Origin: a virus
Strand: one strand, 5' to 3'
Length of the DNA stretch: 64,000 nt
Virus record (IMG/VR): IMGVR_UViG_3300028563_000011
Location: 46,592 to 110,591 of that record
The notes beneath the pieces are model-generated. The model ran no database searches and was not told where the DNA came from. It saw only the letters and a list, made by a program, of their open reading frames with translations. Shown here piece by piece: positions 4,782-31,204 of this stretch. The translations under genes were made by a program, and so were the position numbers. Each line of letters starts with the position of its first letter. Position 1 is the stretch's first letter.

Positions 4782-4782
4782 T

Positions 4783-5307: not shown

Positions 5308-5316
5308 TCAAAACCT

Positions 5317-10268: not shown

Positions 10269-10269
10269 C

Positions 10270-10440: not shown

Positions 10441-10452
10441 CACACCCTCCTA

Positions 10453-10719: not shown

Positions 10720-10814
10720 GGGTTTCTCTCCTTTGAAGAGATGCTACCGCCCAACAATCAATTTGATTTTGATTTGTATACTACGTTTCTCGACATTGGT
10801 AAAGCACTAAATTA

Positions 10815-11657: not shown

Positions 11658-11832
11658 ATTTTAACCACTCTTCTTTTATTCGCTCTGGATCCACTTTCCA
11701 CAGAGTACAAAGATCTCCGTGAACCATCTCTACTCCCCATGGACGTAATCGATCTATCATAGCTCGAATATCTTGACCGCACAAGCCTGGACAAAGTCTC
11801 AACAAATCATACATGGAATAGACTTTAGACAT
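11602..11832 (-). CDS. Hypothetical protein
   Basis: Fills the gap between GT genes; overlaps both neighbours. Confidence 0.35.
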   Translation of the reverse strand: MSKVYSMYDLLRLCPGLCGQDIRAMIDRLRPWGVEMVHGDLCTLWKVDPERIKEEWLKYDRSKASLSVYPAKPKKV

Positions 11833-12538
11833 TCAAAACTGCACCACCGTATTTCCATAAGGTACTCTTGGAGATTGGTTCCCAAACCAAATGCTGGTTA
11901 GAATTAAACCAAGCAAATTTCTCCCCTACATAGAATTTCCGCTTCTCAAATATTCGCTTCTCACAACCAAATACCATAAAAGGATAATCAGTAAAGTACA
12001 ATAAGTGCGAAGGACCACCTAATACAAAAAAGTTCATCGTAGCACCAGCGTATAACGCCATACGCTCGTGAAGATGAATAGGTTTTACTGAGTAATCTTC
12101 AATAACCAAAGCCCCAATATCAGCCGCAAATCCACGCCATAATTTCTCATCTGAATTACGCCAAGGCTCTTGCTTACTCTTACGTAAAGTCACCGTAAAA
12201 TCAACCTGTTTTGGAGGAAGCACTGTCTTAAGTCTAGGAAAGTTATAATCTGGCTTGTAGTTCTCTAAGAACTTACTAAAACTTGCCGTTCCTTTAATTT
12301 GACCTTCTTCCCCATTCACACACTCCCGACAAGGTAACCCAGCAAGGGCGGGACCAGGGAATAGTATACTCTTTGCTCGCCGCCTTACATCTTGTAAGCC
12401 CCACTCAAACATAAGCATGGGGCTAATAGTTTTAGTTTGCAGGATGATTTCGGTAGCCCCTTGAGCCTTTACATGAACTAACCAAGTAAAGAAATCAAAA
12501 CAAGGTTGGGCTTCTCGTAAATCATATTTAGCCAACAT
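11825..12538 (-). CDS. Putative glycosyltransferase-like protein (GT-B related)
   Basis: VTLR...RNSD...W and ERMALYAGATMNFFVLGGP resemble a GT9-like C-terminal domain; sits among GT genes. Confidence 0.45.
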   Translation of the reverse strand: MLAKYDLREAQPCFDFFTWLVHVKAQGATEIILQTKTISPMLMFEWGLQDVRRRAKSILFPGPALAGLPCRECVNGEEGQIKGTASFSKFLENYKPDYNFPRLKTVLPPKQVDFTVTLRKSKQEPWRNSDEKLWRGFAADIGALVIEDYSVKPIHLHERMALYAGATMNFFVLGGPSHLLYFTDYPFMVFGCEKRIFEKRKFYVGEKFAWFNSNQHLVWEPISKSTLWKYGGAVLNV

Positions 12539-12539
12539 C

Positions 12540-13217
12540 TTATACCCAATTCTCCTTTACCCATTTCAAGTGAAGTAAATCCACAGGATTACGCTTACCT
12601 ACAAAAGTCACAATACGCGCATCCACTGGCAACTGATCATCTTTTGGCCATTCACGCTTACGATACACGTATATACCACTTTTGGGTCCAACAGGCCAAC
12701 CTGGCGCTCCGGGTAATTTATGCCAAAGCCAACCTTGATCATCCGGCCACTCATAGCGCGGAATATACTCAACAGCCTCCAAAGAGAAATCATCCCAAAC
12801 ACCCGGGTGTTCCCCAACCCTTACCATAACCAAAGCCCCGTTATAGGGGCAAGGGTTAGATACATTGGCTCCTTGTAGGATAACAAAAGGCTCAGGTCTA
12901 TCAAATAAAGGATCAAGAGGACCCGTTATCACAGAATCTAGATCAATACCAACAATTCTATCATCAAACTTATACTTCTTCTGCCATTCAGGTGAAAACA
13001 TTTGTAGGCGTATAAAACACCCTTTACCCAACAAATAAAACGACTCCTCAGGAATAGTAAAGACATTATCTATCTCAGGGGATTTGAGAAAAGACTCATC
13101 AGTAAATACTGAGAACTTATACGGCTGTGTAATGTGCTTCCTTAAGCTTCTTGCAAGAATATGGACGTACGCAGGAGAATATTTGACGCCCCAAAACCAA
13201 GTTATGATATTAAGCAT
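12540..13217 (-). CDS. Glycosyltransferase (GT-A fold)
   Basis: WGVKY...YV, FTD, DxD motif (IDLDSVITGPLD), YNG and DDQGW. Confidence 0.75.
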   Translation of the reverse strand: MLNIITWFWGVKYSPAYVHILARSLRKHITQPYKFSVFTDESFLKSPEIDNVFTIPEESFYLLGKGCFIRLQMFSPEWQKKYKFDDRIVGIDLDSVITGPLDPLFDRPEPFVILQGANVSNPCPYNGALVMVRVGEHPGVWDDFSLEAVEYIPRYEWPDDQGWLWHKLPGAPGWPVGPKSGIYVYRKREWPKDDQLPVDARIVTFVGKRNPVDLLHLKWVKENWV

Positions 13218-13749
13218 GAGGAGGATCCATCAAAGCAACCCATTCTTTAACACCAGTATTCCAAGTCCGCTTTACCTCAAACCCGTACTTAGCGAATTCC
13301 TGATGCCACCACTCACCAGGGTTTACGATCAAATGACTATTACGCCCATCTGAAAGCCAACGTCGCTTTGTAAACTTACAGGAAATAACAACAAATAAAA
13401 GTTTCTTGGTAGCTACAACTAAATCCAACATCACATCGTGTAAACATTCGGGTTCAATATGCTCCATAACATCAAGACAAGTTACAAGATCTGCTGTATT
13501 TGTCAAACGATCCTTACCCTCAACAGCTGGGTCATATTCAAGTACAGTAAAGGGCAACGGTGGGCGAATACGCTTTATTTCTTTTGCTAGTTCTCCTTTA
13601 CCACAGCCATAGTCAAAGACTGTAACACAACGCTCAATTAGAGCAATACCTGTAACAAGGTAAGCCCACTTACCCGAATTACAGGCGTACTCTTGATCCT
13701 CAGCGTGCAGACGACGCTGCTCTTCTAGGTATTTCTGAGTGATTAACAT
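13210..13749 (-). CDS. Class I SAM-dependent methyltransferase
   Basis: VFDYGCGKG (motif I) and DLVTCLDVMEHIEP. Confidence 0.85.
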   Translation of the reverse strand: MLITQKYLEEQRRLHAEDQEYACNSGKWAYLVTGIALIERCVTVFDYGCGKGELAKEIKRIRPPLPFTVLEYDPAVEGKDRLTNTADLVTCLDVMEHIEPECLHDVMLDLVVATKKLLFVVISCKFTKRRWLSDGRNSHLIVNPGEWWHQEFAKYGFEVKRTWNTGVKEWVALMDPPHA

Positions 13750-14462
13750 AATCCCGCCAATTCTTGTTTAGACATTTTGTGAACTGCTCCCCAATGGGTA
13801 TCTACCCAATCCAGGTGACCTAACTTACGAGGGTCCCGCCGTCCTGGGAATACAACAAGCCTTGCGTTCTCGGGTAAATCATCTCCAGAAGGCCAGTGTT
13901 TTTTCTTAAAGCCGTACACCCCTTGTTCAGGACCCCACTCACAAGCATTAGGGAGCATATGATGTAACCAAGCTTGATCATCAAAGATTGAGTGCTTTGG
14001 TACTTTGTGTAAAGCCTCTAACGAAAACTCATCCCAGACATCTTGATAATCTCCCGCCTTAAACATCCAAAAGGAACCATTGTATGGGTTAGGGTTTGTT
14101 GAATTAATACCTTGTAATATAGCAAACTCTTCATACATATCAAACAAAGGATCAAGTTGACCTGTAACAATTGAGTCAATATCTAAATTAACAACCTTCT
14201 CCCCCTTCTTTATGCTGTGAGCTTCCAACCATTTCCAATCAAAAAGCCTCATCCTAACAATACATCCAGGCTCTTGTAGTAATTGCGGGTCGGCTATATT
14301 CCAACGGTAGCACCCTGGGAGAAGAATGTTATTATTTTGAGCGTCAGTCACAACGTGAAAAATGAAAGGCTGTTTTATGTTACGGACTAAAGCCTTACGC
14401 AACTTCATCAAGAAGTAAGGCTTGTACTTGTTCCCCCAAAACCAAGAGACAATATGAATCAT
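13743..14462 (-). CDS. Glycosyltransferase (GT-A fold), paralog of 12540..13217
   Basis: WGNKY, LDIDSIVTGQLDPLF, NPYNGS and DDQAW. Confidence 0.75.
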   Translation of the reverse strand: MIHIVSWFWGNKYKPYFLMKLRKALVRNIKQPFIFHVVTDAQNNNILLPGCYRWNIADPQLLQEPGCIVRMRLFDWKWLEAHSIKKGEKVVNLDIDSIVTGQLDPLFDMYEEFAILQGINSTNPNPYNGSFWMFKAGDYQDVWDEFSLEALHKVPKHSIFDDQAWLHHMLPNACEWGPEQGVYGFKKKHWPSGDDLPENARLVVFPGRRDPRKLGHLDWVDTHWGAVHKMSKQELAGLC

Positions 14463-14598
14463 TCTATATCTCTTCTATTTCTACCATTTAACCACTCAGT
14501 ATTTTCCCACCATTTCATCCACTCACTACGGGCTATACGGGAGGGACGATTAACTTTAACCCCATTTATCAAAACCCAATCTGGATAAATTTCGATGA

Positions 14599-15381
14599 TC
14601 ATGTCAGTAACCCCAAGGCACTACGATACACCTGGTCGATACTAATCGCCTTCATCGCTTCTATACAGTGGCTGCATCGGCTAAGGGAGCCGCAGGGCTC
14701 TGTCCCGCCCGTTAAGTTGACATTGGTAGGGTAGCCCAAGATTTTTGGATCAGTGAAGCCCCCAAAGAGAACAACCGCCTTTACACCCAACGCCGCTGCA
14801 CCGTGTGCTAACCCACCTTCAGGACCTATATATAACTTAGCCTGAGAAAGAGCGACTAAAGCCTGACGGAAGTTCTTAGTTACAATTGGCTTCACCCCAG
14901 GGAACATGGTTGTATTGTAGTGATTGGTATCATACATAAATTGACAAACAGTAAACCCTGCCCGTAACAACATCTTGGCTACTTGTTGATAACGCTCGTA
15001 AGGCCATTGTTTGTTAGGATAGACCGGTTTTACCCGAGGCTCTATCAGTACATACCTCGGCTTTATTTTTCTTGCTAATTCACATTCGGCTTTATTAAAG
15101 AAAATCTGACCCGGTATTGCTCTAAAATTGGGGTCGTAAACCCAGTTAGCTCCCTGAGTGCTCTTACTAAAATAAATACGGTTATGTTTATAGTGCGCTA
15201 TCCATTCTAAGTCAGGAGCTCCTTCACTACCAGGAGGCGCTATATTAGGGTTATTCCTATAAATCAGTTCACCAGTTTGAGCCCACAAGATAGTACGTCC
15301 GTCACCAAAAGCAATACGCTTACCACGATCACGTGCGCCTCTGGCCAAGCCTGTACCCAAAATTTCGTCACCGTAACCCAT
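14599..15381 (-). CDS. Glycosyltransferase family 9-like (heptosyltransferase-like)
   Basis: MGYGD start, NKQWP and LYIGPEGGLAHGAAALGVKAVVLFG. Confidence 0.8.
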   Translation of the reverse strand: MGYGDEILGTGLARGARDRGKRIAFGDGRTILWAQTGELIYRNNPNIAPPGSEGAPDLEWIAHYKHNRIYFSKSTQGANWVYDPNFRAIPGQIFFNKAECELARKIKPRYVLIEPRVKPVYPNKQWPYERYQQVAKMLLRAGFTVCQFMYDTNHYNTTMFPGVKPIVTKNFRQALVALSQAKLYIGPEGGLAHGAAALGVKAVVLFGGFTDPKILGYPTNVNLTGGTEPCGSLSRCSHCIEAMKAISIDQVYRSALGLLT

Positions 15382-15567
15382 TTAGACAAAGTCTTTTTCA
15401 TCAGCTACAAAAACTTTCACCTCAGTATTAAAAGTCTTGGTAGGGGTATTTTCTTCATCATCAAGCCCCCGAGCATACCACCACAAACTATTCTGTATCA
15501 TAATTTTAAGATGTTCTGGTTTAAGTTCATAACTATCTGGTACTTGAATAGAGATTCTAAGGTTCAA
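15382..15567 (-). CDS. Hypothetical protein
   Basis: Small coupled ORF with AGGAGG RBS. Confidence 0.45.
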   Translation of the reverse strand: MNLRISIQVPDSYELKPEHLKIMIQNSLWWYARGLDDEENTPTKTFNTEVKVFVADEKDFV

Positions 15568-16091
15568 GTCAACCTCCTAGGGTACATCAAAGCCACCCAC
15601 TCATCCTTCTCAAATTTCCAGACGGCTTTAACACTAAATTGTCTGTCTACCCTAGCTCGCCACCACAACCCCGGTTTGACGATAAGATGTGCATTAGACC
15701 CATCGGAAAGTAACTTACCTGCTGGACGAGTTGAAATTACAGCAAAGAGCGCAACCTTAGTTAAGGAATGTAAATGCTCAAGTACATTATCTAGTAAATC
15801 AGGCTCAATATGTTCTAATACATCTGTACAAATAACTAAATCACAAGGCTCAGGAAGATTTGATTTTTCTTCTATGGCTGGGTCATATTCTTCAGCAGCA
15901 AGATAGTACCAACTCAAAGCCTTAGCTAAAGCCCCAGCCCCACAGCCATAATCCAAAATTGATTGTGCCTTGAGATACCCCTTTAGATAAATGATAGGGG
16001 TGACCCAACGATCACCCCGTTCACCGTACCCGCCTAGTAAGTGTAGGCGCTTTTGTTCTTCCAAATACTCGGAAGATATAAGATCAAGCAT
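15564..16091 (-). CDS. Class I SAM-dependent methyltransferase, paralog of 13210..13749
   Basis: ILDYGCGAG, DLVICTDVLEHIEP and LSDGSNAHLIV. Confidence 0.85.
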   Translation of the reverse strand: MLDLISSEYLEEQKRLHLLGGYGERGDRWVTPIIYLKGYLKAQSILDYGCGAGALAKALSWYYLAAEEYDPAIEEKSNLPEPCDLVICTDVLEHIEPDLLDNVLEHLHSLTKVALFAVISTRPAGKLLSDGSNAHLIVKPGLWWRARVDRQFSVKAVWKFEKDEWVALMYPRRLT

Positions 16092-16109
16092 CCTGCTTTA
16101 ACCTATAAT

Positions 16110-16460
16110 TCAATACTTCACCCATTCCTGGGGTAACTTACAGTTCCTGGTAGCACTAGCAAACATAGGAGCAATATCCTCGTCCTTGTAACCAGCTAAC
16201 CCACAACCGATTCTAGTAACATTAAACTCTAAATCTTCATGTATAGCCGCGTACAACAAGAAATCTGCAACGTAGCACTTTATAGCCGCTAAAGACAACG
16301 GACGTAGCGTGCTATCTTTTGTAGGGATTGCATAAGCATTACCTGTACGTCCTACCCAAGCACCATAAACAGCCCCATGATGTTGTCGAGCATGTAAAGC
16401 CGCTCCCGCCCCGTGCCTACCTTTAAGGTTTGAACCAAACACAAATATAGAATTACTCAA
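16110..16460 (-). CDS. A1S_2505-family phage protein (macro-like)
   Basis: IFVFGSNLKGRHGAGAA...YAIPTK...VTRIGCGLAG. Confidence 0.7.
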   Translation of the reverse strand: MSNSIFVFGSNLKGRHGAGAALHARQHHGAVYGAWVGRTGNAYAIPTKDSTLRPLSLAAIKCYVADFLLYAAIHEDLEFNVTRIGCGLAGYKDEDIAPMFASATRNCKLPQEWVKY

Positions 16461-16487
16461 TGTTTATAACCTCTATTTTAAGGTACT

Positions 16488-16964
16488 TCACTCAGTTTCA
16501 TCTTTCTCAATCCTTGCAGGTTGCGGACCGGATTCTTGATCCTGGTACTTACCTTTATAGGGCTGAATTGTGGGTTCATCTAATTGCTCGAATATTACTT
16601 GAGCAATTGGCGTACCCGCATCTAAGTAAATCCACTCTTTTGTTTCGTTGGATAACTCCAAGGTAAGAAAGCCTCTCCAAACAGGCTCACCAATTGTATT
16701 TTGTACAAACAAACCCTTACGAGCCCAAGATGATTTATCATGAACACGCATTACTAAAAAGGATGGGATAAAGAACTGTTCTAAAGTCGCCCCTAATGTG
16801 TAAGAACGAGGAGCAAGATTAACCATAGCTCCTAAACGAATATCATAACCTGCTGAGGACAAACCGTAGCTCATCCCACTAGGATGTACCTTACGATCAG
16901 TAAAGGGTGAAATTAAACTGGACTCAAGACACAACTTACGTATTGACTGCGCGCTTAAGATCAT
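16488..16964 (-). CDS. dcd: dCTP deaminase
   Basis: SYGLSSAGYDIRL, DKSSWARKGL, GFLTLELSN and YKGKYQDQ. Confidence 0.9.
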   Translation of the reverse strand: MILSAQSIRKLCLESSLISPFTDRKVHPSGMSYGLSSAGYDIRLGAMVNLAPRSYTLGATLEQFFIPSFLVMRVHDKSSWARKGLFVQNTIGEPVWRGFLTLELSNETKEWIYLDAGTPIAQVIFEQLDEPTIQPYKGKYQDQESGPQPARIEKDETE

Positions 16965-17281
16965 AGCCCTTCTCTACCTTCTTTGATCAAAGACAACAAC
17001 TTCCAAGAAGCTATACCTAATATTTGCGACCTTAAAGCCAAACCTTCATTCCAATCTTCATCTACAAAGTAATGGATCTTAGAACCACAATCATCATTTA
17101 GATCATAAGGGCAAAAGATTTGTACAAGTACTCCTCGTCTAACTTTAGCAAAAATTAAGTACACCTTTTTAATCTTGATACAATACTCAGAAATATCCAT
17201 TATCTTTAATGGTTTAACGGAAGGTTCTTTAGGGTCTCCAGAATCATACAATCCCATATCATACGTAGTAATATCTATCAT
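16961..17281 (-). CDS. Hypothetical protein
   Basis: Translationally coupled ORF. Confidence 0.45.
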   Translation of the reverse strand: MIDITTYDMGLYDSGDPKEPSVKPLKIMDISEYCIKIKKVYLIFAKVRRGVLVQIFCPYDLNDDCGSKIHYFVDEDWNEGLALRSQILGIASWKLLSLIKEGREGL

Positions 17282-18084
17282 CGTCCCCTACCATAATCCC
17301 CAAACTCAACTGGAACACGAAAGGTCTCAGGACCTTGACCCGCTGCATTGGCCTCTGCTAACATACGGTCAAACAATTCAGGTATTTCGGGCATAGGATG
17401 AAGTTCATCTCTACCATTGTACCAATGAGGCTTACCCTCCAACTTTAACCTAGCACGAGCATGTTTGTGATTTGGTTGTGTGGGGATATTAGTATAGTGT
17501 ATAAGCTTTACCTTCCCATCATATATAGTCGGACGATATTGAGCCTTATCATCATCCTTACCATCTAAACAATTCCACTCACCTTGAAACACCCCCGCAT
17601 GTTTAGCTATAGTACTACGCACAGGACGATAAGCCCCCTCCACTGTCTTTAAGTGTTCAATTGGAGGTAAGACTTTCTTCATACGCTCATTATCCATGAG
17701 CATAACACATGAAGCCCCAATTTTAGACATAAGTAGGGCTTTACCATCTGGAATTGTTTGATTCCAGAGTTCTGCAACATCCGCAATAAAGATTTGATCA
17801 CAATCACAATAGATCGCCTTGCCTTGAAACTCACAAGCCGCTGGAATACCCCAACGAAGACTGGAAAAGGGTGTGGCTGCTCCTCGCATATTCCACCCCT
17901 TACGAGGATTTGCTTGTGGGTCACTATACCAAAAGCTATTCGGGTCGCGAGAAAGCATCATCCAAATAATATCAACATCATCCTGAGGGTGGTGCTTACG
18001 CAAAGACCAGGCAAAAACCGCCTGGCATTCTAAATCTTCATTATTGGCTGGAGTACCGACGAACACCCGTATTCGTTCAGACAT
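17278..18084 (-). CDS. Glycosyltransferase (GT8-like, GT-A)
   Basis: IRVFVG, TPFSSLRW, AIYCDCDQ (DxD), WNCLD and LIHYT. Confidence 0.8.
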   Translation of the reverse strand: MSERIRVFVGTPANNEDLECQAVFAWSLRKHHPQDDVDIIWMMLSRDPNSFWYSDPQANPRKGWNMRGAATPFSSLRWGIPAACEFQGKAIYCDCDQIFIADVAELWNQTIPDGKALLMSKIGASCVMLMDNERMKKVLPPIEHLKTVEGAYRPVRSTIAKHAGVFQGEWNCLDGKDDDKAQYRPTIYDGKVKLIHYTNIPTQPNHKHARARLKLEGKPHWYNGRDELHPMPEIPELFDRMLAEANAAGQGPETFRVPVEFGDYGRGR

Positions 18085-18340: not shown

Positions 18341-18913
18341 TCATACTCCTCGACTAAATCCGTAATCTCCGGGGAATTTAGATTTCTCATGAACCCCAAC
18401 CGCTTTATTACTCGGGAAGTTCCCAGAACCAGCTAAGTACAAACCAACCAGTTCTTGAATAATGATTGGGAACCTAGGCCCCCCAGAACCCAAGAAGGTG
18501 GCATCAATACCACGGAAGTTTGTGATAGACACAGAACCCGCGGTCAATGACCGTACACGTTCAGTTATTGACTGTTGATCTTGTACTGTAGACCCATTAA
18601 GCAAGGCCAAAGCCAACTCAATAGACCCAGCTACAATCCCGTCAGGAATTACCCCAGCAGAATCATCTAAACCTTCGATGCCCATTTCCTTACGTGGAAA
18701 TTGATTATATTGATTAGAATCAAACTTAACTCCCCGCCAAACTTGTCTATCTAGAATACGCGTAGCTGTAATTAATGAACGGTTTTTATCATCAGTGGTA
18801 GCAGATCGCCAAGAATCCCCCTGGAACGCAGCAGCCATATACTCATCTGCAGTTGCAACATCTGCGTACACAAGATAAGGCTGAGAACCTATGAAGATTG
18901 TTTCGATTGCCAT
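18341..18913 (-). CDS. Head-tail adaptor (DnaT-like/Ad1 connector family)
   Basis: YADVATADEY...W...SLITATRILD...WRG...QFPR pattern. Confidence 0.75.
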   Translation of the reverse strand: MAIETIFIGSQPYLVYADVATADEYMAAAFQGDSWRSATTDDKNRSLITATRILDRQVWRGVKFDSNQYNQFPRKEMGIEGLDDSAGVIPDGIVAGSIELALALLNGSTVQDQQSITERVRSLTAGSVSITNFRGIDATFLGSGGPRFPIIIQELVGLYLAGSGNFPSNKAVGVHEKSKFPGDYGFSRGV

Positions 18914-19477: not shown

Positions 19478-21349
19478 TCAAGGCTGTCCTCCTTCTGCAA
19501 CAATCTTAGCTTTGCTACCGTTATTGTCTATAAGCACCCAATGCTTCAAGCTTGGTTTTAGAGTGTCAAAGGTTTGCTCGTTTGTACGTTGGTTAAAAGG
19601 TACCTCAGGAGGTACAAAATAACCAGTTGACATAAATCGAGACATAGCTCTACTTGTAGCGGTTTCAGGTGCTGCGTGAACGTAGTAACCTTTTACATCA
19701 TACCCCGCAGCTTTATACGCAGCAACGCGCTCTTGCGCTTGCTGAGTTACAGCCATTGTAGCGTCATATATTATATTCAAACCAGCACTACGTGCAATAC
19801 GCTCCGCCTGTGCTACTAAATCTCTCGCTTCTGGTAGATAGAGTTCTGCATTAGCGCCATTGTAGCCCGGCATAGATTCTCTAATTGTATCTGCTGATAA
19901 GTAGAAATACTTTGATTTATCGATTCCTTCTAAGGCAGAAGTCTTACCTGAACCTGGGCGACCACCCGTCATAATCAATTCTGGGGCTTTACCAGGGTCT
20001 GGAGTTGCAGCTTGAATAATGTCTTTCCTAAACAAATGCTCCAATAAGTTCTTATGCAAAGCTTGACGTGCTGGAGTATACTGACCATCAGCAGTTGTAT
20101 GCTGTTCTTTTGTTGAAGGGTTAGAAGCAATCAATTCCTTTGCTCGTGCTATTGCCGTTGTTGTATCGCCCGGTATTATTTTCAATACATCATCTAAAGT
20201 AAGTTCTGGCTTTAGATTTTGTCGTAATAAAGCTACAGCAGAACCTTTAGCCGAGTCTGATGTAGCAAAACGTCCTCGCTCATCGTGATGGGGATTGAAT
20301 TTTTCTATAGCAGCTGTAGTGAACCTTCCCAATTTGTCGTGATACGGATTAGCCTTGTTGGTGATTTCTAAATCACCATGACCGTGAGGAATAGGCTTAA
20401 CGTCAGCGTCTTTCGGCTGGTTGGTAAACGACTCCTTTTCTAATTGAGCTTCCTGACCACGACACCAAGCCGACCAAGCATCCCAATCAATATCATTGTC
20501 TTTAGCATAAGCCCGCTCAGTTGGCGTTCCAGCCTCGTTATGGGCCTTCAAGTAAAGTGTCTTCCGCTCTTCTTCGTTAGGCTCACGACCTTCTTTGTCC
20601 TTAAAATCTTGCAACAAAGCATCAATCTTGGTCTTCTCAGCGACCTCATGTTGTAAAAGCATATCAGATACAATAACTTCTTTATCTTTAATTGTAGTCT
20701 TTTCCGGTAAGTTCTTATTCTGATACATTGTCTTGCCATCTTGACTCATGCAAGACATCCAAGGCCCATCATGTTCTAAATCAACCTTAACTCCGCTTGT
20801 ATTAACTTTCTCCATATCTGGAGCATAGAGATCAATTGCTTCTTTTAATTGAGTTAAGATCTCTAAGACAGGATCAAGATCCTTCTTTATCTCAGGCTGT
20901 TTGTTACGCAAAGACTTCAACGCTGCTACAGAACTCTTCAAGATTGTTTTGGTCTGTTCTTTTGGCACACCCATTGTCGTTGACAGATTATGTACAACAT
21001 ATGAAATGTACTCATCAACATCAGGGCCATGAAGAGTATTCCAAGACCCATTCTTTGCGGCGTACCCTACGATGGAAGACAAAGCCAAGGCAACAAGGTC
21101 TTTTACCGACTGTTTTGTCTTTGGATGTTTTGCTACAGAAATTAAGACTTGTCTAGCCGACTTACCATGAATAAATTCAGACGTAGCTTTGAAGCCTACT
21201 TGTAAAAAATTTGAGAAACGCCCCTTAGCGTCATGGTAGGGGTTAGCTTTCTCTATTGGGTTGAAAGCTTTGCTCAAAGCCAAGACACAATACGTCTTAC
21301 CGTTTGACCGGAAAGTATCACCAACTCGTAACTGCGCTAACGAATTCAT
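19478..21349 (-). CDS. Tagged polyprotein: 3 NPxHD tags, helical module, HExxE domain, C-terminal zeta-toxin-like P-loop kinase
   Basis: KANPYHDAKGRF, KANPYHDKLGRF and KFNPHHDERGRF. The C-terminal GGRPGSGKT...LSADTIRE...NIIYDAT...RAMSRF...VLIDN matches the zeta toxin/AAA_33 pattern. Confidence 0.75.
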   Translation of the reverse strand: MNSLAQLRVGDTFRSNGKTYCVLALSKAFNPIEKANPYHDAKGRFSNFLQVGFKATSEFIHGKSARQVLISVAKHPKTKQSVKDLVALALSSIVGYAAKNGSWNTLHGPDVDEYISYVVHNLSTTMGVPKEQTKTILKSSVAALKSLRNKQPEIKKDLDPVLEILTQLKEAIDLYAPDMEKVNTSGVKVDLEHDGPWMSCMSQDGKTMYQNKNLPEKTTIKDKEVIVSDMLLQHEVAEKTKIDALLQDFKDKEGREPNEEERKTLYLKAHNEAGTPTERAYAKDNDIDWDAWSAWCRGQEAQLEKESFTNQPKDADVKPIPHGHGDLEITNKANPYHDKLGRFTTAAIEKFNPHHDERGRFATSDSAKGSAVALLRQNLKPELTLDDVLKIIPGDTTTAIARAKELIASNPSTKEQHTTADGQYTPARQALHKNLLEHLFRKDIIQAATPDPGKAPELIMTGGRPGSGKTSALEGIDKSKYFYLSADTIRESMPGYNGANAELYLPEARDLVAQAERIARSAGLNIIYDATMAVTQQAQERVAAYKAAGYDVKGYYVHAAPETATSRAMSRFMSTGYFVPPEVPFNQRTNEQTFDTLKPSLKHWVLIDNNGSKAKIVAEGGQP

Positions 21350-24300
21350 TCGAGTATCTCTTGAGCGATGATCTCTAAACCTTCACCATCCTCAATAAAA
21401 CGTGTGATCTTAGCTATTGTTTCTTGAGGTAAGGCTTGTTCATCATTTTCACGCTGATCCATATCGTCAAGCATTCCAATTAAGTAATCTAAAATAGCAA
21501 CAACAGGATCGGACGCATCGACTTGAACTTTCTCTATCTGACCCTTACGATAAGCCTTTAAGAGATTTAGGAAAACCTTGACCGTAGCTCGCGCTTGACC
21601 AATTGTGATATCTCTTTGCTGAGCCTCTCCCAATACCGTACGCTCAATTAGGGAATTGACTTGCCTTTGAATAGGAGCAGAGAAAGGCACACCTTGGTCT
21701 TTTGTTGCTTGGTTTAACAGATGAGAAGCAAGTTGTGCAACTCCCTCACGACCCAATACTGAAGCGTGATCTTTCAAGACTTCAGCTGAAGAACTTGTTC
21801 TAAACCATTTGGCAACCTCAAAGGCTCTATCCACAAGGCTCAATCCAGCTACAGCTGCTGTTACGCTTAGAGCATGCTTCAGTGTCAAAGAACGTGTGGC
21901 CGCCTTTTGGGCGTACTCTTGATCCATAGCCAACGTTGCGGCATGTCTAGACGCAGTGATAGGACGGCGGGCACCAGCAACATCTGTAAAGCGTCCTCTT
22001 CCGTCATGGTAGGGATTAGCTTTCTCAACAGAACCCTGCTTTTTAGGAATTAAAACCATAAATAAAGTCACAGAATCAGACAGCCCTTTTTCTATACGCT
22101 CATTGAAAACTTTTGTTGTAGGCTCTTTAGCAATACCAACAATCCACTCTGGCTTAACTTCTCCTTTAAATTTGAAGTCTGAATTCTTCCCAGTAAAACC
22201 CTCAGTAACATCTGCACTAGCTCGCTTATCAAATTCCTCTTTTGGTATCTTTATTTCCAAAATTACAGGTTCTGACTTATTGATTTCAGCAGCTAAATCT
22301 GCAAACCCTGCTGCTTGTTCCCAGTCAAAAGACACGTAAACATAACCTTTAGTATCCCTTATTAGCTCCTGCTTCTCAGCCTTAGACATCCCTTTCATAA
22401 TAAAACGATCAGCACCTTTTCCTCCTTGAGGTTTTAATCCCTCTCGCATAATTTGACTTAGTGTCTTTTCATTAGTCCCATGAAAAACAGTAGTAGCCCA
22501 TTTCCCAGACTTATCCCGGGGTTCATCTGGGTTGAAGGCTTTAGATAAGTCTTCATCAGACCCCATATTGTCAAGGTCTTCTTGCAATGCCTGAAGTATT
22601 TCCAAGATTGGGTCAGTTTCATCAGCTTTCTTAATCTCAGACTCACGCAACTTTTGGAATACCTGTATAGCTAAATGCAAAGCTGCACGAGCATGTGCTA
22701 ATGTAACATAATCCAAAGCACCAGGCTTGGGCTGACCTTCAGGAGTACTCCTACTAAAGTGATGGACAGTAGAATAGATAAAATTCCTCACATCTTGATG
22801 TAAGCCTGGGTCTTGGCTACCTAACTTATGTTCAATTGCTGTACCAGCAATAAAAGTCAAGATATGCCCAATTGCTTCCTTTGCTATAAATAAAGATTCA
22901 TTCTTAACTGTTTGTTTAACAGGTTCTGACGATAACCATTCTTTTGTACGTAATACCTTACCTTTCAACCCAGGAACATTTGCAAAGGCTGAAGGCTGAG
23001 GTGGGGTTTCCTGAGGGTGTTCATGTATTCCAGGAGAGCTTGACGCACTACCGAAACCAGCTGTAAACCGACCGTGACTATCTCTAGGTTTATACCCACG
23101 ATTGGCTTTAGTGAATTCCTCGTCCCAACTCTCAACATCATCAAGGTCAAAGAACTTCTTGACGTTCTTTGGGTTTGTAACATTCTGATTCCCAGCTGAA
23201 CCTTTACCCCCAGACTTTGCTGGAGGCTGAGAACCGTTAACTGAAGGTTGGGTTCCACCGTTACCACCAGGTTGACCTCCACCCCCGCCAGGTTGTCCCG
23301 GGGTTTGGCCAGCAAACTTAGCTCTAGCTGTTGCTTCAGCCATCTTTACTGGGTCTACTGGCTTGCCATCTGGACCAAACTTCATTCCAGCCTTAGCTTG
23401 TTGCTGCTGCTGATACATATCCATATCAGGCTCAGGCTGACGCTCAATACCCAACAAATCACGTACATCATCAATCGCTGGATCATCGGGACGTAAGACA
23501 GCACCAGCTGTAGCCATTTGCGCTAATGAAGCTGTAATCTCTTGAACAGTACGGAAAGCCAACTCAGAGTGCTTTAACTTAGGACGTAATTCATCTTTAA
23601 TACCATTCAAGTCACAAAGAGGTTCAATAACATCCTTATTACAAGCATCAGTAATTTCATCCAGGGTACCATTAACAACAAGATAGAAATTCTGAGACTT
23701 GTCGGATGCTAGAGCTCTAGAACCACCACCTTTGTCTCCAAGCAATAAGTTCTCAACGCCAAGAATACGCGCCATTTCTAGAATAGTACGATCAATAGCT
23801 TGACCAATTTCAGCAAAGCCAACTGAACCACCTTGCAGGAGTTCCACACCAAACTGCATTGCACTTGAAACTGAAGGACCAGAATCAGTCTCAACAATGT
23901 ACGGGGCTGAGTCCATAACGATTGAAGTATCGTTAGACTTGGATTGCATCTTAACGAAGTCTTCAACAGCTTGAGTAATTCCAGTAGCATCTTCTTTGGT
24001 TAATTGACCCGCTTGTACAGCTTTACGTATTGCAGTGTAAGGCACCCGTCCAATGGGGATACCACGTAAGTCACGTTCAAAGCCTCGACCTTCTAGCTCG
24101 AAATATTTCTTCAAGCGTTCCCAAGGCTCGATAAGATGACGATACAAACCAATTCCTTCTGGGGAATCAGTTAAAGTATCGTCTACCATGTACATAACTT
24201 TGGAGCGTGGGATATAAAGCAAAGCCCCACCTATAGGAGCACGTTGCCACACTCCAACCACAGAACCGTTATCGTCAAGTTCCCAACGCTCAATTGTATG

Positions 24301-24816
24301 CTGAGGCCGAGCTTCAATATCATCAAAGCCCACTTTGCCATCATCGCGTTTCTTAGCTGTCCATTCCTGGATACCAAAACCGTGGAAACGGTACATAGCA
24401 GAACGGCGTACAATTCTACGCCAAGGTGTAGCTGTGTCTTGAATCACATCCTCAAATAATTCTGCAATTTGTTTGGCTGCAGGAGAATCATCTGCTGGCT
24501 CAACTTTCCATTTAGCATAAGAGATCAAGTTCAACATGTAGCGCGTACCAGCAGCTACAATGGAAGTGTTAACCATAAGGTCAGTAAAGGTAATCCACTT
24601 TTGTGGGCCAACAAGCCGAGCATCGCGCTCACGTTGTAGAATTAAACCGCCATAAACGGCGGTTCCTGACACTCCTTGTTCGGAGAAGGGAGTAGCCTTA
24701 GGTAACGGCCCGGTTCTAAACAAATTAGTAATTCTAGAACCAAAACCAGCAAGACGTGCTCCATAAGGAACTTTAGCCACAGGCTCTCTCCTCTTTTTTA
24801 GAGCCAAAGTGGCCAT
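21346..24816 (-). CDS. Portal protein (DUF935-like) with ~690 aa C-terminal extension containing tags and an ART-like domain
   Basis: N-terminal ~460 aa has portal features (HGFGIQEW, SPEGIGLYR, FERDLRGIP, GSRALASDKS, DDVRDLLG) and follows terL. A Q/P/G-rich linker and tagged modules follow. Confidence 0.85.
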   Translation of the reverse strand: MATLALKKRREPVAKVPYGARLAGFGSRITNLFRTGPLPKATPFSEQGVSGTAVYGGLILQRERDARLVGPQKWITFTDLMVNTSIVAAGTRYMLNLISYAKWKVEPADDSPAAKQIAELFEDVIQDTATPWRRIVRRSAMYRFHGFGIQEWTAKKRDDGKVGFDDIEARPQHTIERWELDDNGSVVGVWQRAPIGGALLYIPRSKVMYMVDDTLTDSPEGIGLYRHLIEPWERLKKYFELEGRGFERDLRGIPIGRVPYTAIRKAVQAGQLTKEDATGITQAVEDFVKMQSKSNDTSIVMDSAPYIVETDSGPSVSSAMQFGVELLQGGSVGFAEIGQAIDRTILEMARILGVENLLLGDKGGGSRALASDKSQNFYLVVNGTLDEITDACNKDVIEPLCDLNGIKDELRPKLKHSELAFRTVQEITASLAQMATAGAVLRPDDPAIDDVRDLLGIERQPEPDMDMYQQQQQAKAGMKFGPDGKPVDPVKMAEATARAKFAGQTPGQPGGGGGQPGGNGGTQPSVNGSQPPAKSGGKGSAGNQNVTNPKNVKKFFDLDDVESWDEEFTKANRGYKPRDSHGRFTAGFGSASSSPGIHEHPQETPPQPSAFANVPGLKGKVLRTKEWLSSEPVKQTVKNESLFIAKEAIGHILTFIAGTAIEHKLGSQDPGLHQDVRNFIYSTVHHFSRSTPEGQPKPGALDYVTLAHARAALHLAIQVFQKLRESEIKKADETDPILEILQALQEDLDNMGSDEDLSKAFNPDEPRDKSGKWATTVFHGTNEKTLSQIMREGLKPQGGKGADRFIMKGMSKAEKQELIRDTKGYVYVSFDWEQAAGFADLAAEINKSEPVILEIKIPKEEFDKRASADVTEGFTGKNSDFKFKGEVKPEWIVGIAKEPTTKVFNERIEKGLSDSVTLFMVLIPKKQGSVEKANPYHDGRGRFTDVAGARRPITASRHAATLAMDQEYAQKAATRSLTLKHALSVTAAVAGLSLVDRAFEVAKWFRTSSSAEVLKDHASVLGREGVAQLASHLLNQATKDQGVPFSAPIQRQVNSLIERTVLGEAQQRDITIGQARATVKVFLNLLKAYRKGQIEKVQVDASDPVVAILDYLIGMLDDMDQRENDEQALPQETIAKITRFIEDGEGLEIIAQEILE

Positions 24817-25579
24817 CCGGCCCCCTACGTGAGGCTAATAATTCCCGCATTGCTTGGGTCTTGTTATGTATATTTAAGTGGGCAACTAACTTTGCTTTAT
24901 GCTCCAAAGATTTAGGCTTGTTTTTAAGCTTGTTTGCGTATTTATTCCCAATATGTATATCAGTACATATTCGTTTGTAGTTATTTCTTTCTTCAACAGA
25001 AAGACTAGCTCTAAATCTTTTTAGCCCCATACTAATATTTGTCTTATGTTCTTCTGAAAGTTTACGTCCTTTTGTACGCGTATTCCCCACCAAGGAATCT
25101 GAAATTGCCTTACGCCAATTTACCAATTCTTCTTTAGTCTTATTAGACTTCGCTAATCTGAGTGCGGTCTTATGAGCATCACTCAACTTTCTACCTTTAG
25201 TATAACCCCCATTTTGTTGATTATATCTATTTCTCTCTGAGAATTTTTGTTTTGCTTCTTCAGAATGCTTAAACCCAGTAACAGATTTATCTCCACCATT
25301 CGTCAAATTACAAAGAGTGCCTGTACCTAGATTTATTCTACCGTATTTCTTTACTAATTCCCGCTCTAGTGCCAAAGCTTGAGTCTCAGTTAGTAATGTC
25401 TTCACCATCCTTACTTCAATTGATAAACCCAAATTTTTTAGTTTGGCTACTATTCGCTTATGTAAATTACTTCTACCTCCAAAGTTGGAGGCCCGGCTAC
25501 CCTTGCCTTTACCCACGTAAAAAACTTGTCCGGTATCTGGTCGAACATGCTCATACACATAAAAGTATAATGGTTCCAT
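24773..25579 (-). mobile_element. Free-standing GIY-YIG homing endonuclease with NUMOD3-like repeats
   Basis: FYVYEH...FYVGKG...R, catalytic E (LALERELV), NLTNGG, and HSEE/LSEEHK repeats. Confidence 0.85.
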
Positions 25580-25585
25580 CTCCTT

Positions 25586-25690
25586 TTAATCCCCCCTTTC
25601 CCTAAAAGGCGTTGCTTTGGGCAACGGCCCAATGCGAAATAGGTTATAGATACGGGTTCCTAGAGCGTTTAAGGCGTTAGGCGTTGCCAT
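25586..25690 (-). pseudogene. Truncated duplicate of portal N-terminus (34 codons)
   Basis: Manual translation MATPNALNALGTRIYNLFRIGPLPKATPFRERGD* versus portal FGSRITNLFRTGPLPKATPFSEQG. Confidence 0.8.
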
Positions 25691-27066: not shown

Positions 27067-28881
27067 TCACTTATCCGGGTGTTTAGAATCATACACCTCC
27101 CCGTCCTTGAAGACTTTAGGACCCATTCCAAGCATGAACGTAGGTTGGACTACCGGCCAGTAATTCATAACAATTGAATCTGCCAGGTTAGGTGATACCG
27201 TACCATCTGGTGATTTGTCAACTAAAAGTTTTAACCTAGAGTTCTTAGACGCAGTAGCTTGTGACAACTCTTTCTCAATCTTACGTAAAAGAGGTAGCTT
27301 AGAGTCAAGTGAGATTAACGTGTCTGGATCGTGTTTAACACCTTGTGTAACAACTTGATATGTACGAAGGAAACGGTTGCGCAATTCCCACCAAGCTTGT
27401 GCTTTTAGGTTGGCATAGAAATCTTTGTTCTTAGGTGAGTCTAGGTCACCTTCATTGACTCTTGCATTAGGGTATAACACAGATGAACCAGCATTCCATG
27501 CAATAAACTGTAATCCTTTTGGTATAATTAGCTTACCTTCACTATCTTTTTCTTCCATTAAGCGATTTGTCTCAGCTTTAACAGCGGCACCAACTCCAAT
27601 ACAATCGTACTGAAGGGATAAGGCTCCTAAACCTAAGACAGCTGCTACAGCACGTCTAGCTGTTACGCCGGGGTCTCTAGCACCCCACTCTTCCGCAAAG
27701 CGTAGGACTACCCCCTGGCGCTTAGATAGGGCATTACGGTCACCACCTTCATCAGCTACGTCTAAAGCTGCACCCCAGGGCCCACCTTCGTGCCAACCTT
27801 CAAGAGAAGTTACATTGGCATGTAAGTGAGCGTCAATTGACGCTTTCACCCACTCATTAGGTATAATGACACCAGCTAATGCTGCAGTATAGTTACGATC
27901 TACTTCTTGAGCTAAAAGATGTAGTGTACCTTTGTCTTCTGCGTTTCTTCTACGTTCAGCGTACCACTCTTCTGTTTTATCAGGGTGATCCCTCCAATCC
28001 ATAACAAGAACACGTGTTTTGCCTCTCGGTATTACAGCACCAGGGTACCAATCAATACCACCCTCACGAGTTCTATGGAATAAGTTACCAGGCCCATTAA
28101 CAGAAGACATATCAATTGGGACACGAGTAGTATCCCCTAAAGACGCTTCAATCAACTCTGGATGCTCGTAATGGCTACTCTCATCTTTCATGTAGAGAAG
28201 TGTGCGCCCACCTCTACCAATATTATCCCCAATTTCTCCTTTTATAACTGATCCGTTTGAAGGGTTAATACAACGCATAAAGGTAAGATGATCACGCGGT
28301 TCTAATCCTTGAGGTAAAAACACTTCTGGTAAACCGCGAATCATCATCCTAATCTTTTCAAAGATTGAGTCGGGATCACCCAGCTTATCCACTTTTGGTT
28401 GGGTAGCTGAGCCCCAACCAATTTGAGAGCTAGGCCAAAATAACCAAAGCCAAACTGAGAAAGCAACTCCAATCCAAGTTGCTCCCATATCTCTCGACTT
28501 TTCAATTAAGCCCGGTTGCTCATCTTTCAAACAAGAAAGAAGGAACTGTAACATTTCTACTTGCTTAGGAAACATAATAAATGGAAATCGAGTAAGCTTA
28601 CCTTCTTTACCAACATTACGTGGCTCATATAAATCAACCCAATGATTAATCCACTCTAATGAGTGTTCCTTGTAGTAAGCTTTAGCTGATTCGATAAGTT
28701 CAGGTCTAAACTCAAACTTATCCAACTGGTTTTTACGCCAAACTAAAACGCTGTCGTAATTAGGCGGCCAGTTTTCTCTTGAACAAGGCTGTGGTGGTTT
28801 AAGTTTAGTCGCACTTGCTCTTAACAGACGTTCAACACGTACTGTACGTAAAGCCTCAGATACGTCTATTAAGCCAGACAC
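27067..28881 (-). CDS. terL: Terminase large subunit
   Basis: Walker A EKSRDMGATW, Walker B MKDESSH, coupling motif SSVNG, nuclease LDVADEGGD, and SPNLADS. Confidence 0.93.
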   Translation of the reverse strand: MSGLIDVSEALRTVRVERLLRASATKLKPPQPCSRENWPPNYDSVLVWRKNQLDKFEFRPELIESAKAYYKEHSLEWINHWVDLYEPRNVGKEGKLTRFPFIMFPKQVEMLQFLLSCLKDEQPGLIEKSRDMGATWIGVAFSVWLWLFWPSSQIGWGSATQPKVDKLGDPDSIFEKIRMMIRGLPEVFLPQGLEPRDHLTFMRCINPSNGSVIKGEIGDNIGRGGRTLLYMKDESSHYEHPELIEASLGDTTRVPIDMSSVNGPGNLFHRTREGGIDWYPGAVIPRGKTRVLVMDWRDHPDKTEEWYAERRRNAEDKGTLHLLAQEVDRNYTAALAGVIIPNEWVKASIDAHLHANVTSLEGWHEGGPWGAALDVADEGGDRNALSKRQGVVLRFAEEWGARDPGVTARRAVAAVLGLGALSLQYDCIGVGAAVKAETNRLMEEKDSEGKLIIPKGLQFIAWNAGSSVLYPNARVNEGDLDSPKNKDFYANLKAQAWWELRNRFLRTYQVVTQGVKHDPDTLISLDSKLPLLRKIEKELSQATASKNSRLKLLVDKSPDGTVSPNLADSIVMNYWPVVQPTFMLGMGPKVFKDGEVYDSKHPDK

Positions 28882-29438
28882 GAGTACCTACCTTTGATCA
28901 ACTTAAGTTGTTTTTGTAGTCTTTTAATAGTGCTTGTACGTACTGTAGCTAATGAATCATAATACCCTACATCCCTTGGCTTACCGTAATGACGAGCACC
29001 ACTAACCCGGTCTCCAGATATTGTCTCTGCTTTAGGGTAAAGACGTTTGAGTTGTCTAGCTATATCTCGAACACTACTAGAGCCAAGACCCAAAGGTTTA
29101 TCAAAAGCTGATACTGCACTTTCATTTTCTGGACTAGACTCAATACTCAAATCCTTACCTACCCATTCTACGTACAAATGCTTAGGATCTGCAACATTCA
29201 AAACAACTGAACCAACCCTTTGGTTAAATACATCCCTAATATGATAATGATCGTATTGTTCTCCTGGCTGTACAATTTCTTTATGACTAAATACAAGGTA
29301 AGGTTTAGAACCAGAAGAGGACCACTTCCCAGATTTATCTCTAGGCTCTTCCGGGTTGAAAGCTTTGTTCATTCCCTGCTGGACCTTTACCAGGTCCAGT
29401 TGAAGGTTCATGATCTGTAGTTGTGTTTGAAGGCCCAC
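28869..29438 (-). CDS. Tagged putative internal head protein (cargo possibly GNAT-like)
   Basis: Leader + MNKAFNPEEPRDKSGKW tag, nearly identical to the portal tag. Confidence 0.6.
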   Translation of the reverse strand: MGLQTQLQIMNLQLDLVKVQQGMNKAFNPEEPRDKSGKWSSSGSKPYLVFSHKEIVQPGEQYDHYHIRDVFNQRVGSVVLNVADPKHLYVEWVGKDLSIESSPENESAVSAFDKPLGLGSSSVRDIARQLKRLYPKAETISGDRVSGARHYGKPRDVGYYDSLATVRTSTIKRLQKQLKLIKGRYSCLA

Positions 29439-30763: not shown

Positions 30764-31204
30764 CTACTTCTCAAAGACTTTGGGTACGTGACCTTCACGT
30801 ATCTTAGCCTTTATCTGTGATGCTAGACGCGTAGCAAGTTGCACATCATAATCTGGCCTACTCGCCCAGTACTGCATCTTATCACTTGCATGAGCAAGCT
30901 CAGTATGAGCACGTTTAGCCTTTGCAGGGTCTTCAGCTGTCTTTGCTAAGTGACTCAAGTATACATACGCTGCAAAGTGCTTAGCCCAATTTGCAGTTGG
31001 GTTAGGTTGCCTGCCTGACCAAGGGACTTTCTTACCACCCCCATACATCTGCTTATCAGAATAAACAATCCCCATACCAGGAGAAGAACTAAATCGACCA
31101 AATTTGTCATGATAAGGATCAGCTTTAGCCAAACAACCAAACAATGCTACTGACTCTCGTAAAGAGTCAATTCTCTGGGCTAGGACTTGAGTTGTATTCA
31201 CCAT
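30764..31204 (-). CDS. Tagged putative internal head protein
   Basis: Leader QRIDSLRE...LAKA + DPYHDKFGRFSS tag + helical cargo domain. Confidence 0.6.
   Translation of the reverse strand: MVNTTQVLAQRIDSLRESVALFGCLAKADPYHDKFGRFSSSPGMGIVYSDKQMYGGGKKVPWSGRQPNPTANWAKHFAAYVYLSHLAKTAEDPAKAKRAHTELAHASDKMQYWASRPDYDVQLATRLASQIKAKIREGHVPKVFEK

Follow-up and report, generated by a model that had tools for sequence, protein, structure and literature searches.

A Mu-type phage portal protein running in one frame into a tail of two helical modules and a predicted ADP-ribosyltransferase-fold module, each preceded by a shared junction peptide

We analysed a 64,000-nt window, the whole stretch of DNA under study, from an IMG/VR virus record. 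The window holds a portal gene whose product, P0001, is a Mu-type portal core running in one frame via a linker into three modules, one of which has a predicted ADP-ribosyltransferase (ART) fold. The source of P0001 is a complete 110-kb uncultured phage. The parts of the gene are as follows:

21346..24816, minus strand: whole portal-effector ORF (P0001), 1156 aa, a single open frame
23437..24816, minus strand: portal core, residues 1-460, ending at the clade-conserved ...DDPAIDDVRDLLG motif
23116..23436, minus strand: Q/P/G-rich linker, residues 461-567, ending in the acidic patch FFDLDDVESWDEE
23065..23115, minus strand: junction peptide 1, residues 568-584, FTK-ANRGYKPRDSHGRF
22549..23064, minus strand: helical module A, residues 585-756, paralogous to module B and to the module in P0002
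22498..22548, minus strand: junction peptide 2, residues 757-773, LSK-AFNPDEPRDKSGKW
22132..22491, minus strand: minimal ART-fold domain, residues 776-895, as indicated by an AF2 model, structural matches and a family profile
22480-22482, 22336-22338 and 22210-22212, minus strand: putative ART site residues H779, Y827 and D869, respectively
22030..22131, minus strand: extension at the C-terminal end of the ART module, residues 896-929, made up of a helix and the hydrophobic strand VTLFMVLIP in a low-confidence model
21988..22029, minus strand: junction peptide 3, residues 930-943, VEK-ANPYHDGRGRF
21349..21987, minus strand: helical module B, residues 944-1156, all-alpha; its helix at 977-995 is weakly hydrophobic

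Residues 98-456 of P0001 score 62 bits with Portal_Mu PF06074 (cut-off 23.9, profile positions 24-335 of 336), and residues 59-498 match the portal family phrog_113 with an E value of 8e-55. P0001 is the sole portal gene of the phage, as a profile search gave one PF06074 match in the complete 110,591-bp virus record. The large terminase lies upstream on the same strand (27067..28881), and the other neighbours are a zeta-kinase polyprotein, an Ad1 adaptor, MuF and a protease. Twelve portal relatives from IMG/VR (47-56% identity) align to residues 13-467 of P0001, and tail modules like those of P0001 are absent from all 12 of them, suggesting that the tail is a recent, swappable cassette. The linker (QQQQQ, GQPGGGGGQPGGNGG) is probably disordered and prolongs a disordered, low-complexity C-terminal tail that is also present on the related portals. 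A megablast search with the P0001 gene against GenBank phages gave 0 matches, and a homologue search with the whole tail returned only P0001 itself and one ART relative. A sequence-only reading of this DNA had described the ORF as a portal with an in-frame tail of about 690 residues (21346..23430, corresponding to residues 463-1156) that consists of a Q/P/G-rich linker and three tagged modules, and had proposed comparing tails among related portals; this description is borne out in each of its parts, and the comparison is the one with the 12 tail-less relatives.

One junction peptide, or tag, stands ahead of each of the three modules, with the common form h-x-K-[A/F]-NP-x-(H/R)D-x-x-G-(R/K)-(F/W). 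The tag regular expression gave 10 matches in the long frames of the genome, against 0.12 expected (the maximum in shuffled sequence was 2), and direct reading found 14 tags in seven head-region proteins of the phage. In small free-standing proteins this tag follows a leader of 25-35 residues, and in giant ones such as P0015 it stands between as many as about 10 modules of one polypeptide. Among 114 embedded ART domains, 46% have a tag at most 50 aa upstream, compared with 11.5% for random windows in the same proteins. For other phages, we assembled 101 NPYHDxxGRF tags from 80 IMG/VR loci, with the flanking positions -1, -2 and -4 lying outside the search pattern. Lys is found at -2 in 83 of these (82%), I/V/L at -4 in 73 and F/A/Y at -1 in 83, whereas at junctions of the FNPxQPRDxxGRW type in other phages this Lys varies far more (h-x-[KR] in 49 of 117). 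The synonymous sites of the phage's own tags are scrambled (identity 0.47), which argues for selection on the peptide and rules out the tags as DNA-level recombination joints. Searching with two short tag peptides by tblastn revealed one weak match (E 0.2, in a Nitrososphaera provirus portal gene) and no others. The junction peptide does not occur in the main text of PMC5512222 or PMC5576092, and literature searches with motif strings returned nothing relevant.

Residues 776-895 are, on the predicted structure, a genuine ART fold. The AF2 model has a pLDDT of 83.9, every significant Foldseek match was an ART with Tpt1 first, and the best 50 VIA-align matches listed were all ART-fold proteins, the top one being the NAD+ lobe of KptA 9ld3 (Z 12.1, rmsd 2.1 over 84 residues, 27% identity), with Arr (Z 9.6) and TreX (Z 8.8) among the further matches. 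Structure prediction was the test on which the sequence-only reading had staked its ART assignment, and the fold is present; the motifs that it had quoted (VFHGTN, IMREGLKP, YVYVS, VILEI and VKPEWI) lie at residues 777-892, within 22132..22491 of the window, and the likeness to Tpt1/PARP that it had claimed holds at the level of both profile and structure. The domain begins three residues past its tag, with a helical module upstream. With PF01885 (Tpt1) it scores 16.4 bits, below the cut-off of 26, and no more than profile positions 98-124 of 177 are aligned; it is not a member of the Tpt1 family because the RNA-binding lobe is missing. PF18760 (ART-PolyVal / Tox-ART-HYD2) gave no match to P0001 at E<=1, and hhalign of the domain with one ART-PolyVal domain aligned the YHGT strand only (probability 4.8%). 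No match to the domain was found by tblastn in GenBank phages (50,697 records).

Of the putative site residues, H779 lies inside the invariant HGT motif, Y827 inside V-[Y/F]-x-[S/T], and D869 just ahead of a loop, where strand 4 ends. The canonical acidic residue of ARTs stands at the start of strand 5, and the residue at that position is variable across the family to which this domain belongs. The P0001 copy retains the His-Gly-Thr, the strand-2 aromatic residue, the near-invariant Asp and 14 other conserved positions; it departs from the family consensus by R822T, E870V and R882K, where the consensus residue has a frequency of 81% (Arg), 68% (Glu) and 80% (Arg), respectively. These substitutions could weaken or change the predicted ART activity. 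No Macro or ARH de-ADP-ribosylase was found in the phage genome.

The family around this domain is a compact ART family of 192 representatives (E<=1e-3) that has no curated Pfam model and lies close to the NAD+ lobe of Tpt1. Its profile finds Tpt1/KptA among PDB sequences at E 7e-5, and 43 members gave weak matches to the Tpt1 model (14/43) and the PARP model (9/43) and no match to PF18760 at E<=0.1. Across 142 family domains the His and Thr are invariant, the Asp is present in 140 and the strand-2 aromatic residue in 141 (Tyr in 90, Phe in 51). Family members are found inside polyvalent proteins, joined with Acb1, InPase and ART-PolyVal, the last of which co-occurs with this family as a separate domain in P0007 and P0093. 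They are also fused to Phage_portal_3 portals (P0012, P0027, P0049 and P0152), to a distant Portal_Mu whose portal is 25% identical to that of P0001 (P0057), and to MuF (P0004, P0007 and P0035). The portal-then-ART-family architecture occurs in at least five independent proteins of other origin, which span two portal families. Fifty members of the family are free-standing.

Three further features of the window bear on the remaining modules and on their possible processing:

19478..21349, minus strand: P0002, the next gene, 623 aa, its start overlapping the portal stop
5899..7302, minus strand: candidate processing enzyme, in which an XkdF-like prohead protease is fused to an Acb1 (2H) domain
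1274..2158: scaffold-like coiled-coil ORF, 294 aa

P0002 consists, in order, of a leader, a tag, a helical module, a middle domain, two tags and a Zeta_toxin-type P-loop kinase, and belongs to the same cargo cassette as the portal tail. By BLASTP, helical module A is related to module B (E 5e-8) and to the helical module of P0002 (E 1e-7), and a profile search with the three modules found only these two proteins of the phage. The ESM Atlas held no usable match for module B, whose AF2 model from a six-row alignment has a pLDDT of 50. PDB matches to designed PPR proteins were set aside as repeat artefacts. A layout like that of A and B, with a tag, a hydrophobic helix and then amphipathic helices, is also seen in the P0153 repeat units and in the small tagged proteins, which were dropped as homologues because the similarity is not significant. 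P0153 was also rejected as the scaffold; the coiled-coil ORF listed above looks like one. The XkdF-like match scores 20.1 bits against a Pfam cut-off of 24, and the genome gave no other match to such a protease.

Fusions of ARTs to portal and MuF proteins have already been described, and polyvalent and portal-fused effectors have been predicted to be packaged in the head and injected with the DNA (PMC5512222, PMC9503650). Like P0001, the phage-type polyvalent proteins of these studies combine unrelated modules in one polypeptide encoded among head genes, with portal fusion and an ART enzyme (PMC5512222, PMC9503650). With its portal, ART and helical modules in one ORF amid virion genes, P0001 is a polyvalent protein in this sense, and its portal-ART tail illustrates well a known way for phages to carry enzymes in the capsid. 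It differs from the published polyvalent proteins in that its ART is not an ART-PolyVal / Tox-ART-HYD2 domain, as seen from the missing PF18760 match, in that there is no peptidase domain in the same polypeptide, and in that two of its three modules are orphan helical domains.

The motifs HGT...GL.P, V-[H/Y]-[L/V]-S and IPP.(W/Y)I are common to the P0001 domain and the C-terminal NAD+ lobe of Tpt1/KptA (PDB 9ld3, 8tg4, 7kw9). However, the P0001 domain lacks the N-terminal RNA-binding lobe that bears the catalytic Arg-His-Arg, has about 30 extra residues (G.GAD.W plus helices) inserted between strands 1 and 2, and carries an invariant Asp that is a feature of its own family and not of Tpt1. Arr (PDB 2hw2, 9iaf), the second-best structural match (Z 9.6), is likewise a minimal single-domain ART of about 140 residues; it has no sequence-level match to the P0001 domain, and it is a resistance gene, whereas the P0001 ART is read here as a head cargo module of a phage. 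Arr is reported to have a site of the His-Tyr-Asp type (Baysarowich 2008). In T4, gp21 sites have a hydrophobic position -3 and a charged position -1. T4 internal proteins and P0001 share a short conserved peptide before the mature protein with these two properties, although the P0001 junction has Lys where T4 has Glu and its conserved peptide stands after the presumed cut. T4 Alt is, as proposed here for the P0001 domain, a head-borne ART that is delivered along with the DNA (PMC7411985). Nevertheless, Alt is an Arg-Ser-Glu ART, whereas the putative P0001 site is of the His-Tyr-Asp type, and Alt is a free protein loaded via a cleaved N-terminal targeting peptide, whereas the P0001 ART is tethered to the portal. 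A packaged ART of the T4 Alt type is a functional analogue only.

We propose, with a probability of about 0.55, that P0001 carries a phage-type polyvalent cargo array on the portal C-terminus that is cut at the junctions and ejected, with the ART acting in the new host. A portal is a dodecamer whose C-termini face the capsid lumen, so that 12 copies of the array would be built into every prohead with no separate targeting. The sequence-only reading had likewise predicted about 12 copies of each effector and their release by proteolysis. The XkdF-like prohead protease would cleave the array at its junctions during maturation, the likeliest site being just after the Lys of h-x-K. Such cleavage is plausible in view of the h-x-K pattern, the XkdF-like gene and the precedents of T4, in which Alt and the internal proteins are loaded via a cleaved targeting peptide, and of SPN3US, whose prohead protease cleaves the portal and the ejection proteins (PMC7411985). 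Once released, the ART and the helical modules would leave with the DNA through portal and tail, and injection of the tail modules is plausible as well. In the new host, the ART would use NAD+ to mono-ADP-ribosylate a host macromolecule, serving takeover or counter-defence, alongside the other pre-packed enzymes of the phage, the zeta-type kinase of the next gene and the Acb1 on the protease.

The tail might instead stay on the portal, with the junctions serving as folding, docking or capsid-interior binding elements and the modules acting, uninjected, inside the head or at the portal; the modules could then form an internal core or plug, or the ART could modify the phage DNA end or phage proteins, and a rarer alternative would be an uncut, portal-tethered, Tpt1-like ART that caps the packaged DNA end with ADP-ribose. 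Junction cleavage is itself a prediction, and the portal fusion already solves targeting, so that the tags need not be processing signals. In addition, the closest structural relatives of the domain (KptA/Tpt1, Arr and DarT) act on nucleic-acid ends, bases and small molecules rather than on proteins, and the weakly hydrophobic helices of the helical modules are consistent with a structural role. Nevertheless, we consider an uncut tail unlikely, given that a tag found at the head of free small proteins and between the modules of giant ones fits a repeated processing or threading signal, that 12 tails of about 65 kDa (an estimated total of about 0.8 MDa) would crowd the DNA entry/exit channel, and that the nucleic-acid-binding lobe of Tpt1 is missing. 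The junctions could also be mainly capsid-loading or ejection signals that bind the scaffold, the core, the capsid interior or the portal channel, cleavage taking place at other sites or not at all, in which case the tags of the portal tail would be baggage inherited by modules recruited from free cargo genes. The free cargo proteins of the phage do bear the tag near the N-terminus, the related portals are tail-less, suggesting that the modules were added recently, and the T4 capsid targeting sequence provides an analogue (PMC7411985). On a portal fusion, however, a loading signal would be redundant, and yet the full motif including h-x-K is kept in all three junctions with selection at the peptide level. 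A role mainly in loading is decidedly unlikely in our view, although it is compatible with cutting and injection and the two are not exclusive.

The ART module may, on the other hand, be catalytically dead or repurposed as an NAD+/ADP-ribose binder, a decoy or a scaffold, in which case no ADP-ribosylation would be delivered. This is suggested by the three substitutions at conserved family positions, and by motif alignment the Arg lost before strand 2 may match the essential C-lobe Arg of Tpt1. The same Arg is also missing in 27 of 142 family members, however, K823 adjoins its position, R882K is conservative, and the His-Gly-Thr, the aromatic residue, the Asp and the 14 other positions are kept, making an inactive module improbable. 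That misassembly or a sequencing error joined at least two separate genes in one metagenomic contig is very improbable indeed. The identical protein is recorded from one contig only, but the frame runs through 1156 codons without interruption, the linker prolongs a natural disordered tail of the portal clade, and the same layout recurs in the independent proteins described above.

In summary, P0001 is a well-resolved case of how phages pre-load enzymes by portal fusion. It brings to view a compact ART family that lacks a Pfam model and has repeatedly been joined to portals and MuF, and its junction peptide, with a Lys two residues ahead across unrelated phages, offers a concrete handle on the processing and delivery of head cargo. 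More tentatively, the 17-residue junction [I/V/L]-x-K-[F/A/Y]-NP-x-(H/R)D-x-x-G-R-(F/W) might be a general, portable signal of tailed phages that provides both the cut site of the cargo and, after the cut, the N-terminus to be threaded out along with the DNA. If this is true, injected phage proteomes, including the ART and the orphan helical modules of P0001, would be readable directly from sequence.

The portal-effector gene and its neighbours lie in a 110,591-bp IMG/VR source record rated complete by CheckV, the window being its right-hand 64 kb. The features concerned are the following, the junction peptides being called tags.

21346..24816, minus strand: portal-effector ORF, an open frame of 1156 codons; three tags
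27067..28881: large terminase gene, upstream of the portal gene
19478..21349, minus strand: next gene, a tagged polyprotein (leader, tag, helical module, QHEVAE-containing middle domain, tandem pair of tags, kinase); three tags
2229..5853, minus strand: three tagged proteins, flanked by the protease and by a scaffold-like coiled-coil ORF (1274..2158); among them P0153 (850 aa), four tags
5317..5853 and 4783..5307, minus strand: two small proteins, both having a leader, one tag (NPNHDPKTGEF) and helices of membrane type
28869..29438 and 30764..31204, minus strand: a pair of short ORFs (189 and 146 aa) beside the terminase genes; one tag each
5899..7302, minus strand: gene whose product joins an XkdF-like prohead protease domain to an Acb1 domain (anti-CBASS 2H phosphodiesterase; E 1e-35)

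Portal_Mu matched residues 98-456 of the portal ORF with 62 bits (cut-off 23.9), PHROG 113 (portal) matched residues 59-498 (E 8e-55), and this ORF was the sole portal match in the genome. The sequence-only reading had described a Q/P/G-rich linker, three tags and a string running from VFHGTN through IMREGLKP, YVYVS and VILEI to VKPEWI; these are present at residues 461-567 (a QQQQQ/GQPGGGGG-type linker), at 568-584, 757-773 and 930-943, and at 777-892, respectively, and the observation is confirmed. A GIY-YIG homing endonuclease gene stands between the large terminase and portal genes. This gene (GIY-YIG/NUMOD3; 24773..25579, minus strand) is directly 5′ of the portal gene and overlaps its start (region 24773..25675), and just upstream of it, at about 25580..25690 (minus strand), is a 34-codon remnant, MATPNALNALGTRIYNLFRIGPLPKATPF..., that repeats portal residues about 1-45, with 68% identity across residues 21-48. 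Remnant and gene together look like the footprint of endonuclease invasion with co-conversion.

HMMER and single-sequence queries for the middle module (residues 776-895) gave only sub-threshold Tpt1 matches. An exhaustive phmmer search with residues 776-930 against 1.84 billion cluster representatives returned 192 proteins at E≤1e-3, about one-third of them free-standing (<200 aa) and about half ≥600 aa (maximum 4059 aa); these proteins belong to no Pfam family. Weak matches to the Tpt1 model occurred in 14 of 43 family members and to the PARP model in nine, and the PDB chains matched by the family profile were Tpt1/KptA first (E 7e-5), then DarT and PARPs. The AlphaFold2 model (alignment of 43 sequences) had a pLDDT of 83.9, and in Foldseek Tpt1 came top and all matches listed were ADP-ribosyltransferases (ARTs), so that structure prediction, proposed earlier as the test of an ART fold, did find one. 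VIA-align of the model against 48,161 chains gave KptA 9ld3 residues 95-180 as the best match (Z 12.1, rmsd 2.1, 84 residues, 27% identity), with Arr at Z 9.6 and the Rhs toxin TreX at Z 8.8; all of the best 50 matches were ART folds, and a search of a viral structure library agreed. The module lacks the RNA lobe and is therefore not a Tpt1; ART-PolyVal was rejected too.

Nineteen long ART-family members were scanned against Pfam. Four begin with a Phage_portal_3 portal and one with a Portal_Mu portal, which is only 25% identical to the portal here, indicating that the portal-ART fusion arose independently. MuF is found within three of the 19, and others pair the domain with Acb1, InPase, C39 peptidase or ART-PolyVal. 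Judged by these architectures, the ART family is head cargo. The system type, a portal-ART fusion, is already published, and the portal, MuF and multi-enzyme fusions show the pattern that Iyer et al. (2017; PMC5512222) described for polyvalent proteins. Outside the window, the early arm of this phage has another ART-family gene, which is without a tag (L019:1438-2151, plus strand; genome 16451..17164; 237 aa; YHGT, AVYLT, APDEDF). In two related phages its homologues adjoin a primase-like gene.

The flanking helical modules A (585-756) and B (944-1156) are paralogues (E 5e-8), and a further match of module A (30% identity, E 1e-7) follows the first tag of the next gene. The prediction for both is an all-alpha structure in which one helix is weakly hydrophobic; no relatives were found beyond the source phage, and the structure model was too poor for a fold search. 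Our guesses are that they might be packing or ejection helpers, or partners keeping enzymes inactive.

The tag occurs in 14 copies in seven minus-strand head-region proteins of the source phage. The copies have the peptide in common, yet synonymous-site identity among them is 0.47, so selection acts on the peptide itself. The exact DNA pattern for NPYHDxxGRF was found in at least 119 IMG/VR stretches, a few being expected by chance on a rough estimate. Outside the pattern, conservation in the 101 in-frame copies among the matches listed extends to Lys at -2 (83 copies), Ile/Val/Leu at -4 (73) and Phe/Ala/Tyr at -1 (83), and to Thr/Ala/Ser after the tag's Phe. A tag lies within 50 residues upstream of 46% of embedded ART-family domains vs 11.5% of random windows, and within single giant proteins the tag recurs ten or more times as a spacer. 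No description of the peptide was found in the literature searched. A weak tblastn match of the NPYHD tag (E 0.2, 52% identity), at 5635-5697 of GenBank FR725450.1, falls within a putative portal gene of Nitrososphaera phage Pro-Nvie1, an archaeal provirus, so the peptide may extend to archaeal viruses.

The next gene ends in a Zeta_toxin/AAA_33 P-loop kinase (E 2e-24), for which no antitoxin was recognised. P0153 has three helices with Kyte-Doolittle values of 1.65-2.05, and it and the 5317..5853 and 4783..5307 proteins may be ejection or channel proteins. The ORFs at 28869..29438 and 30764..31204, for which no family matches were found, have leaders of 25-27 residues ending in hydrophobic-x-Lys before the tag. 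Acb1 on the protease would be a pre-packaged counter-defence enzyme. The head module is split, between the Ad1 adaptor (18341..18913) and MuF (7591..8565), by an island (9425..18084, minus strand) with two glycosyltransferases, two methyltransferases and a dCTP deaminase. Elsewhere, the ribonucleotide reductase large subunit (34401..37934, minus strand; 1177 aa) has internal HNH endonuclease matches at residues about 405-584, which suggests an intein or endonuclease insertion.

Twelve IMG/VR portals are 47-56% identical to ORF residues 13-467, and none has a tag or tail. Their stop-to-stop frames are about 420-605 aa (474-605 aa in ten; shortest 421), with 20-110 low-complexity residues between the common ...DDPAIDDVRDLLG motif and the end. 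The linker here therefore corresponds to the natural disordered end of the portal clade, onto which the cargo array was added; that the fusion is an assembly artefact is very improbable. The portal-tail ART keeps H779, Y827, D869 (a candidate for the third catalytic position) and most other conserved residues of the family: all 142 aligned domains have the His and Thr of the HGT motif, 90 have Tyr and 51 have Phe as the strand-2 aromatic, and 140 share one Asp. It departs from the family at T822, V870 and K882 (mostly Arg, Glu and Arg), and a dead module is unlikely. To the same degree we doubt that the tail stays uncut as a structural element, and we give slightly less weight still to tags that serve cargo loading only. 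Hydrophobic-x-Lys precedes nearly all 14 tags when the sequences are read directly.

We consider a delivery model plausible, for which T4 Alt and internal proteins are precedents as head cargo, as are the SPN3US portal and ejection proteins, which the prohead protease cleaves (PMC7411985). Fusion to the portal would build twelve copies of the array into the head, cuts at the junction peptides would be made by the XkdF-like protease of 5899..7302, whose match is below threshold, and the freed modules would be ejected from the virion and carry out NAD+-dependent modification of a host target.
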